Shown: positions 54,544 through 55,539 of the stretch, one piece after another
How positions within the stretch are numbered: position 1 is the first letter of the stretch
Layout: every line of letters begins with the position of its first letter
NCBI RefSeq assembly: GCF_044324785.1
Contig: NZ_CP172127.1
DNA: 64,000 nt
Direction: 5' to 3' (one strand)
Source: Escherichia coli
GTDB lineage: Bacteria > Pseudomonadota > Gammaproteobacteria > Enterobacterales > Enterobacteriaceae
Position numbers and translations under genes: made by a program
The notes under the pieces: generated by a model
The model's input: only the letters and a program-made list of their open reading frames with translations
What the model was told of the DNA's origin: nothing
Databases searched by the model: none

Positions 54544-55539
54544 ATGAACGATAACGTTTTGCTCATAGGAGCTTCCGGATTCGTAGGAACCCGACTACTT
54601 GAAACGGCAATTGCTGACTTTAATATCAAGAACCTGGACAAACAGCAGAGCCACTTTTATCCAGAAATCACACAGATTGGCGATGTTCGCGATCAACAGG
54701 CTCTCGACCAGGCGTTAGCCGGTTTTGACACTGTTGTACTACTGGCAGCGGAACACCGCGACGACGTCAGCCCTACTTCTCTCTATTATGATGTCAACGT
54801 TCAGGGTACCCGCAATGTGCTGGCGGCCATGGAAAAAAATGGCGTTAAAAATATCATCTTTACCAGTTCCGTTGCTGTTTATGGTTTGAACAAACACAAC
54901 CCTGATGAAAACCATCCACACGATCCTTTCAACCACTACGGCAAAAGTAAGTGGCAGGCAGAGGAAGTGCTGCGTGAATGGTATAACAAAGCACCAACAG
55001 AACGTTCATTAACCATCATCCGTCCTACCGTTATCTTCGGTGAACGCAACCGCGGTAACGTCTATAACTTGCTGAAACAGATCGCTGGCGGCAAGTTTAT
55101 GATGGTGGGCGCAGGGACTAACTATAAGTCCATGGCTTATGTTGGAAACATTGTTGAGTTTATCAAGCACAAACTGAAGAATGTTGCCGCAGGTTATGAG
55201 GTTTATAACTACGTTGATAAGCCAGACCTGAACATGAACCAGTTGGTTGCTGAAGTTGAACAAAGCCTGAACAAAAAGATCCCTTCTATGCACTTGCCTT
55301 ACCCACTAGGAATGCTGGGTGGATATTGCTTTGATATCCTGAGCAAAATTACGGGCAAAAAATACGCTGTCAGCTCAGTGCGCGTGAAAAAATTCTGCGC
55401 AACAACACAGTTTGACGCAACGAAAGTGCATTCTTCAGGTTTTGTGGCACCGTATACGCTGTCGCAAGGTCTGGATCGAACTCTGCAGTATGAATTCGTT
55501 CATGCCAAAAAAGACGACATAACGTTTGTTTCTGAGTAA
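54544..55539 (+). CDS. gne: NAD-dependent sugar-nucleotide epimerase, likely UDP-GlcNAc 4-epimerase Gne, 331 aa
   Basis: Rossmann motif LLIGASGFVGTRLL and SDR catalytic YxxxK (HYGKSK). Located between wcaM and galF, where gne sits in some E. coli O serogroups. Confidence 0.8.
   Translation: MNDNVLLIGASGFVGTRLLETAIADFNIKNLDKQQSHFYPEITQIGDVRDQQALDQALAGFDTVVLLAAEHRDDVSPTSLYYDVNVQGTRNVLAAMEKNGVKNIIFTSSVAVYGLNKHNPDENHPHDPFNHYGKSKWQAEEVLREWYNKAPTERSLTIIRPTVIFGERNRGNVYNLLKQIAGGKFMMVGAGTNYKSMAYVGNIVEFIKHKLKNVAAGYEVYNYVDKPDLNMNQLVAEVEQSLNKKIPSMHLPYPLGMLGGYCFDILSKITGKKYAVSSVRVKKFCATTQFDATKVHSSGFVAPYTLSQGLDRTLQYEFVHAKKDDITFVSE

Follow-up and report, generated by a model that had tools for sequence, protein, structure and literature searches.

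The epimerases once called Gne were all re-examined by Cunneen, Liu, Wang and Reeves in 2013 (PMC3682973). In that work the name gne was kept for clade A, which includes GalE, the WbpP-like enzymes of clade B were named GnaB, and clade D, consisting of Z3206 and its relatives, received the gene name gnu. The clade D gene of O55 and O157 had earlier been called gne, by Wang et al. 2002 as cited there, and the change from gne to gnu was made by the same authors who had first given the name (PMC3682973). According to the account of Rush et al. 2010 in PMC3682973, the O157 enzyme was inactive on UDP-GlcNAc and acted on UndPP-GlcNAc, the product of WecA, to give UndPP-GalNAc. Whether gnu is present or absent at its galF-linked locus agrees with the chemistry of the O unit, that is, GalNAc as the first sugar, in 104 of 115 serogroups (PMC3682973), and the gnu assignment is repeated in the review of E. 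coli O-antigens by Liu et al. 2019 (PMC7685785). Here we compare with these systems a gene that lies between wcaM and galF in an E. coli chromosome.

Identity of the gene between wcaM and galF

In the window, by which we mean the whole stretch of 64,000 nucleotides that was analysed, the list of open reading frames contains one with an ATG start that encodes 331 amino acids at exactly 54544..55539 of the plus strand. It is flanked on the left by wcaM, the final gene of the colanic acid cluster (52992..54386, plus strand; NCBIfam equivalog NF007517, 1019 bits with a cut-off of 808), and on the right by galF (55782..56675, plus strand; TIGR01105, 689 bits with a cut-off of 659). The spacers measure 157 bp ahead of the gene and 242 bp behind it, and both lengths are identical in O157:H7. 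The protein matches the Pfam family Epimerase (PF01370) over residues 5-222 with E=1.4e-30, and the related SDR families 3Beta_HSD, GDP_Man_Dehyd and RmlD_sub_bind match as well. An SDR epimerase of 331 residues between these two genes was what the initial annotation had described, and the exact reading frame, the flanking models and the Pfam match confirm it. The NAD motif GASGFVG is found at residues 9-15, with GxxGxxG conserved, and S109, Y132 and K136 align with the catalytic residues S124, Y149 and K153 of GalE.

The protein is identical to Z3206 of O157:H7 (WP_000999466.1), the characterised type enzyme of Gnu, at 330 of 331 residues (99.7%), the only change being H209 for Y209, and the two genes differ at 13 nucleotides. 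WP_000999466.1 is the wcaM-galF protein common to O157:H7 SS17, O22:H8 RM10809-3 and CFSAN061763, and the spacing in all three equals that of the window. The H209 form is a common allele: the exact protein is encoded on 289 public contigs. In a megablast search of 5426 complete E. coli genomes, 1314 contained gnu DNA at an identity of 95-99% or better, nearly always as a single, chromosomal copy. With an identical protein on so many contigs and its DNA in so many genomes, the reading frame is real and conserved and is not a product of chance. In all genomes among the matches listed, as for the 289 contigs, PGAP names the product 'N-acetyl-alpha-D-glucosaminyl-diphospho-ditrans,octacis-undecaprenol 4-epimerase', which we take to be EC 5.1.3.26, and the 90% cluster into which the protein falls has members that bear the UndPP-GlcNAc 4-epimerase name. 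No NCBIfam model reached its cut-off with the protein, so the PGAP name must stem from another rule. The near-identity with Z3206, the PGAP name and the Pfam match predict an UndPP-GlcNAc (GlcNAc-P-P-undecaprenol) 4-epimerase, and we hold the gene, with high confidence, to be gnu of clade D, not the UDP-GlcNAc epimerase gene gne. On that identity, the identification of the gene, its position, its motifs and its distinctness from Gne are observations made here; the lipid-linked substrate is taken from the literature.

To place the protein against clade A, it was scored with two models. It can be seen that, first, on the GalE equivalog TIGR01179 it obtained 71.4 bits, with a cut-off of 262.3, and secondly, on NF007956 it obtained 55.9 bits, with a cut-off of 394. 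As a control for both models, the GalE-like protein of the O22 cluster (described below) obtained 437 bits on TIGR01179 and 468 bits on NF007956. Because the scores fall under the GalE cut-offs, the protein does not belong to clade A. Its identity to proteins of the GalE clade is 24-31%, and to the O22 GalE-like protein 23.6%. In the alignment with GalE, the UDP-contact residues N179, R231 and R292 of GalE stand opposite a gap, Y and T respectively, and Y299 stands opposite V295, in a C-terminal domain that aligns poorly, at 25-31% identity. Among PDB entries the best matches were generic SDR proteins (E=1e-17); E. coli GalE gave about 1e-11, WbgU (3ruc), an enzyme of clade B, gave 7e-5 with 25.6 bits, and no structure of Gnu was found.

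The initial annotation had called the gene gne-like and had expected a UDP-GlcNAc 4-epimerase in this position. That a 4-epimerase occupies the galF-linked site of serogroups whose O unit starts with GalNAc stands. The identity implied by the name gne is superseded, for the best matches are to a different epimerase class, and the protein is one residue away from Z3206. If the gene were gne after all, its product would convert UDP-GlcNAc into UDP-GalNAc in the cytoplasm, and WecA would then move GalNAc-1-P to Und-P and so start the O unit. Such a function is compatible with the SDR epimerase fold and the catalytic triad, is what annotations of O55 and O157 formerly gave for this gene (PMC3682973, citing Wang et al. 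2002), and is echoed by the name 'UDP-N-acetylglucosamine 4-epimerase' that persists for some entries of the same 90% cluster. We consider it highly improbable, however. According to PMC3682973, Rush et al. 2010 found Z3206 to be inactive on UDP-GlcNAc. The model score of the protein and its 24% identity to the Gne-type protein of the cluster place it outside the GalE/Gne clade, and the authors who had originally chosen the name gne have themselves replaced it with gnu. Furthermore, O22, like O86, has both genes; in O86, loss of gne1 or of gne2 alike alters the LPS, and both are needed (PMC3682973), so the two enzymes are not redundant.

The same O86 result bears on whether the enzyme might be promiscuous, with UndPP-GlcNAc as its main substrate and, in addition, a physiologically relevant activity on UDP-hexoses or UDP-HexNAcs that would partly replace Gne or GalE. 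In its title, as cited in PMC3682973, the study of Guo et al. 2007 ascribes 'overlapping substrate specificity' to the epimerases of O86, one of which, Gne1, is identical to Z3206, and PMC3682973 concedes that some enzymes outside clade A show activity on UDP-sugars in vitro. Yet O86 needs both of its genes, O22 retains a serogroup-specific clade A gene besides gnu, and Z3206 is among the enzymes reported, by way of PMC3682973, to leave UDP-GlcNAc unchanged. A second activity of physiological weight is thus very unlikely, and an UndPP-GlcNAc 4-epimerase remains the reading that we prefer.

Limits and surroundings of the gnu site

In K-12 MG1655 the interval between wcaM and galF is a spacer of 174 bp without a gene, and the gene is thus absent from K-12 at this site, as the initial annotation had supposed. 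By BLASTN, homology with K-12 stops 14 bp past the stop codon of wcaM (window position 54400) and restarts 17 bp ahead of the start of galF (window position 55765). Between these two points the window has a gnu-bearing segment of about 1364 bp (54401..55764, plus strand), where K-12 has about 143 bp of unrelated spacer. A BLASTN search at word size 7 for a remnant of gnu in the K-12 spacer, or of the K-12 spacer in the window, returned chance 11-mers only, and no mobile-element signature was seen at the gnu site. The gene had been described as inserted, a wording that we do not retain: the polymorphism is one of presence or absence, neither state has left a remnant in the other, and the same data fit an insertion or a deletion.

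The G+C content of gnu is 45%, compared with 36-41% for its spacers, 54% for the upstream colanic acid genes and 31% for the O22 genes. Across 53500..54500 it drops from about 0.54 to about 0.42, within the 3' half of wcaM and well ahead of the end of that gene. Since the G+C content is already falling in the 3' half of wcaM, the low-GC tract starts upstream of the gnu segment.

A promoter-like site, TGGATA-16 nt-TATAAT, lies 5' of gnu at 54411..54438 on the plus strand and agrees with the consensus at 10 of 12 positions; it is put forward as a suggestion only, for in a scan of 54300-57000 promoter and terminator sites did not exceed those of shuffled sequence (promoter-like sites, 6 found and 4.9 expected). 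When the spacers were searched with Rfam, a JUMPstart element was the sole match (56933..56971, plus strand; RF01707, 57.6 bits with a gathering score of 35, E=5.7e-12), and it includes the ops sequence GGCGGTAG at 56960-56967. The start of the O-antigen operon is marked by JUMPstart, and this element lies downstream of galF; therefore gnu and galF are both outside the operon. The gene would probably be transcribed independently, from a promoter of its own. Four more exact copies of the ops octamer occur in the window, at 19809, 31075, 31662 and 44336, which makes 5 in the window with 1.5 expected.

The O22 cluster and its second epimerase

Downstream of galF, the genes at 56993..63883 on the plus strand form an O22-family cluster in the order GT4 (split), GT2, GT2, wzy, acyltransferase (split), GT4 and wzx. 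The 7.1 kb downstream of galF are 99.5% identical to the corresponding DNA of 6 complete genomes, including O22:H8 RM10809-3, and 98.3% identical to that of 3 more, including NCTC9022, and in the O22 genomes PGAP names the wzy and wzx products 'O22 family O-antigen polymerase/flippase'. The cluster of the window is O22, and a GalNAc-containing, non-K-12 O-antigen is predicted. With four glycosyltransferases, wzy, wzx, one acyltransferase and gne, the gene content is consistent with a pentasaccharide unit. The O22 unit, which Bartelt et al. are said to have described in 1994, is reportedly Glc-GlcA-GalNAc3Ac-Gal-GalNAc. In Table S2 of Cunneen et al. (PMC3682973), O22 is listed with two GalNAc and no GlcNAc residues in the main chain and as needing gnu and gne, both of which are 'present and correct'. 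The prediction of a GalNAc-containing O-antigen made from the epimerase gene is upheld by this entry, and that of a non-K-12 serotype by the in silico O-typing of the downstream cluster. The O22 typing is our own observation; the requirement of O22 for gnu and gne comes from the literature.

After the cluster genes, an epimerase gene of the GalE clade begins on the plus strand, a gne candidate (UDP-GlcNAc/UDP-Glc 4-epimerase); its 5' part occupies 63894..64000, where the end of the window cuts it. Its first 35 codons encode the N-terminus of the 338-aa O22 protein WP_050864005.1. This GalE-like gene is confined to the 9 complete O22 genomes, and gnu is found at the galF-linked site in 9 of 9 of them. 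In the full-length orthologue, N179, R231 and R292 of GalE are kept, and a Cys stands at the position of Y299. The exchange Y299C lets GalE accept UDP-GalNAc. For the opening of the GalE pocket by Y299C, PMC3682973 cites Thoden 2002. The strain carries both enzymes: the gene that begins at 63894 is the true gne candidate, and the reading frame at 54544..55539 encodes Gnu.

Two genes of the cluster are split in the window. At 57526 a run of A8 is reduced to A7, and the first O22 GT4 gene (363 aa when intact) is thereby divided into 56993..57634 and 57571..58083; at 61165 a run of T7 is reduced to T6, and the acyltransferase gene (194 aa when intact) is divided into 60939..61211 and 61280..61522. 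When the window was compared with the draft assemblies GCA_958309045.1 (over 19.4 kb) and GCA_020368225.1 (over 13.9 kb), no substitution was found, and these two 1-bp homopolymer deletions were the sole differences. Both genes are whole in the two otherwise identical drafts, and the deletions are private to the window. Homopolymer sequencing error is most likely the cause of both. It is unlikely, but conceivable, that both deletions are real and that the strain is an O22 variant switched 'off' by strand slippage, with UndPP-GalNAc still made by Gnu and the O unit left unfinished or unacetylated. A further run differs at 59068, where the window has G9 within an intact GT2 gene (58865..59734) and O22:H8 RM10809-3 has G8 in a gene annotated as 'frameshifted' (10967..11835 in the coordinates of that locus). 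If the two deletions are real, this length-variable run, the third in the cluster, would suggest that changes in homopolymer length switch the expression of O22. Were the frameshift at 57526 real, the product of Gnu might go unused in this strain, and with both deletions real the strain might be O-rough or non-acetylated.

The divergence of the region is uneven. In comparison with O22:H8 RM10809-3 the window is a mosaic, with a divergence of about 6% for wcaM and the central part of galF (55992-56492), of 1.3% for gnu and of less than 1% for the O22 genes, which suggests recombination breakpoints on both sides of gnu. In three loci from other assemblies, the identical H209 allele is followed downstream by an O120-family cluster (rmlBDAC, wzx and an EpsG-type wzy), with gnu at 10001-10996 and the O cluster from about 12500 in locus coordinates, and the window diverges from these loci by about 3% over 12 kb of colanic acid genes, gnu and galF. 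Over the stretch of about 4 kb from wcaM through gnu to galF, the identity of complete RefSeq E. coli genomes to the window did not exceed 96.9%. The same allele thus stands beside O120-family and O22 clusters, and this indicates that the galF-linked gene moves between serogroup backgrounds.

Such mobility, together with the frameshifted first glycosyltransferase gene of the O22 cluster in the window, might be taken to mean that gnu is carried along as a passenger where recombination is frequent and is dispensable for the O-antigen of this strain. We regard this as exceedingly improbable. The O22 unit contains two GalNAc and no GlcNAc, so GalNAc has to be the sugar that comes first, which makes gnu necessary; the gene accompanies the cluster in every complete O22 genome, and its reading frame in the window is intact. 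Taken together, these results favor a gnu gene that serves the O22 cluster beside it.

Proposed pathway and comparison with named epimerases

In the pathway that we propose, the O22 unit would be started by WecA, which is encoded elsewhere in the genome and would make UndPP-GlcNAc. On the cytoplasmic side of the inner membrane, Gnu would then turn UndPP-GlcNAc into UndPP-GalNAc. A search of the protein for a membrane-spanning hydrophobic segment found none long enough, the top 19-residue window being the first Rossmann strand, and Gnu would accordingly be expected to be soluble or peripherally bound when it meets the lipid-linked substrate. The usual SDR chemistry is presumed: Tyr132, Lys136 and Ser109, with bound NAD+, would oxidise C4 to give a 4-keto intermediate, which would be reduced from the opposite face. 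Onto the GalNAc primer the O22 glycosyltransferases would add the remaining four sugars, and Gne, the GalE-clade enzyme encoded from 63894, would supply UDP-GalNAc, and probably UDP-Gal too, for the internal residues.

The gnu gene, its allele and its link with the serogroup were all already known, and the locus brings no new biology. Its value is one of annotation. A label of gne would assign the wrong substrate and would mask the fact that there are two distinct GalNAc-forming epimerases. With the correct names, GalNAc is recognised as the sugar that starts the O22 unit, and this in turn settles the order of the glycosyltransferases and the linkage made by Wzy, an argument put forward by Cunneen et al. 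2013 (PMC3682973).

Among the named enzymes, Gnu/Z3206 of O157:H7 is the closest. It shares with the protein of the window all residues but one, the locus between wcaM and galF, the lengths of both spacers and an O unit that begins with GalNAc; it differs in having Y209 in place of H209 and in standing upstream of an O157 instead of an O22 cluster. Gne, which belongs with GalE to clade A and is represented by Gne2 of O86 and by Gne of Y. enterocolitica O:8, resembles Gnu in its extended SDR fold, its NAD-binding GxxGxxG motif, its Ser/Tyr/Lys triad and its epimerisation of a HexNAc at C4, and both enzymes ultimately supply GalNAc to O-antigens. In contrast to Gnu, whose substrate is lipid-linked, Gne acts according to the literature on a nucleotide-linked one. 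Gnu is also set apart from clade A by its low identity to that clade, by its failure to reach the GalE cut-off and by the position of its gene outside the O-antigen operon, and the clade A gene of the window is a separate reading frame. The clade B UDP-GlcNAcA 4-epimerases GnaB, WbpP and WbgU are, like Gnu, SDR 4-epimerases that were formerly called Gne as well. Their similarity to the protein of the window is very weak, as judged from the match with WbgU, and no WbpO-type dehydrogenase gene adjoins gnu, whose neighbors are wcaM and galF.
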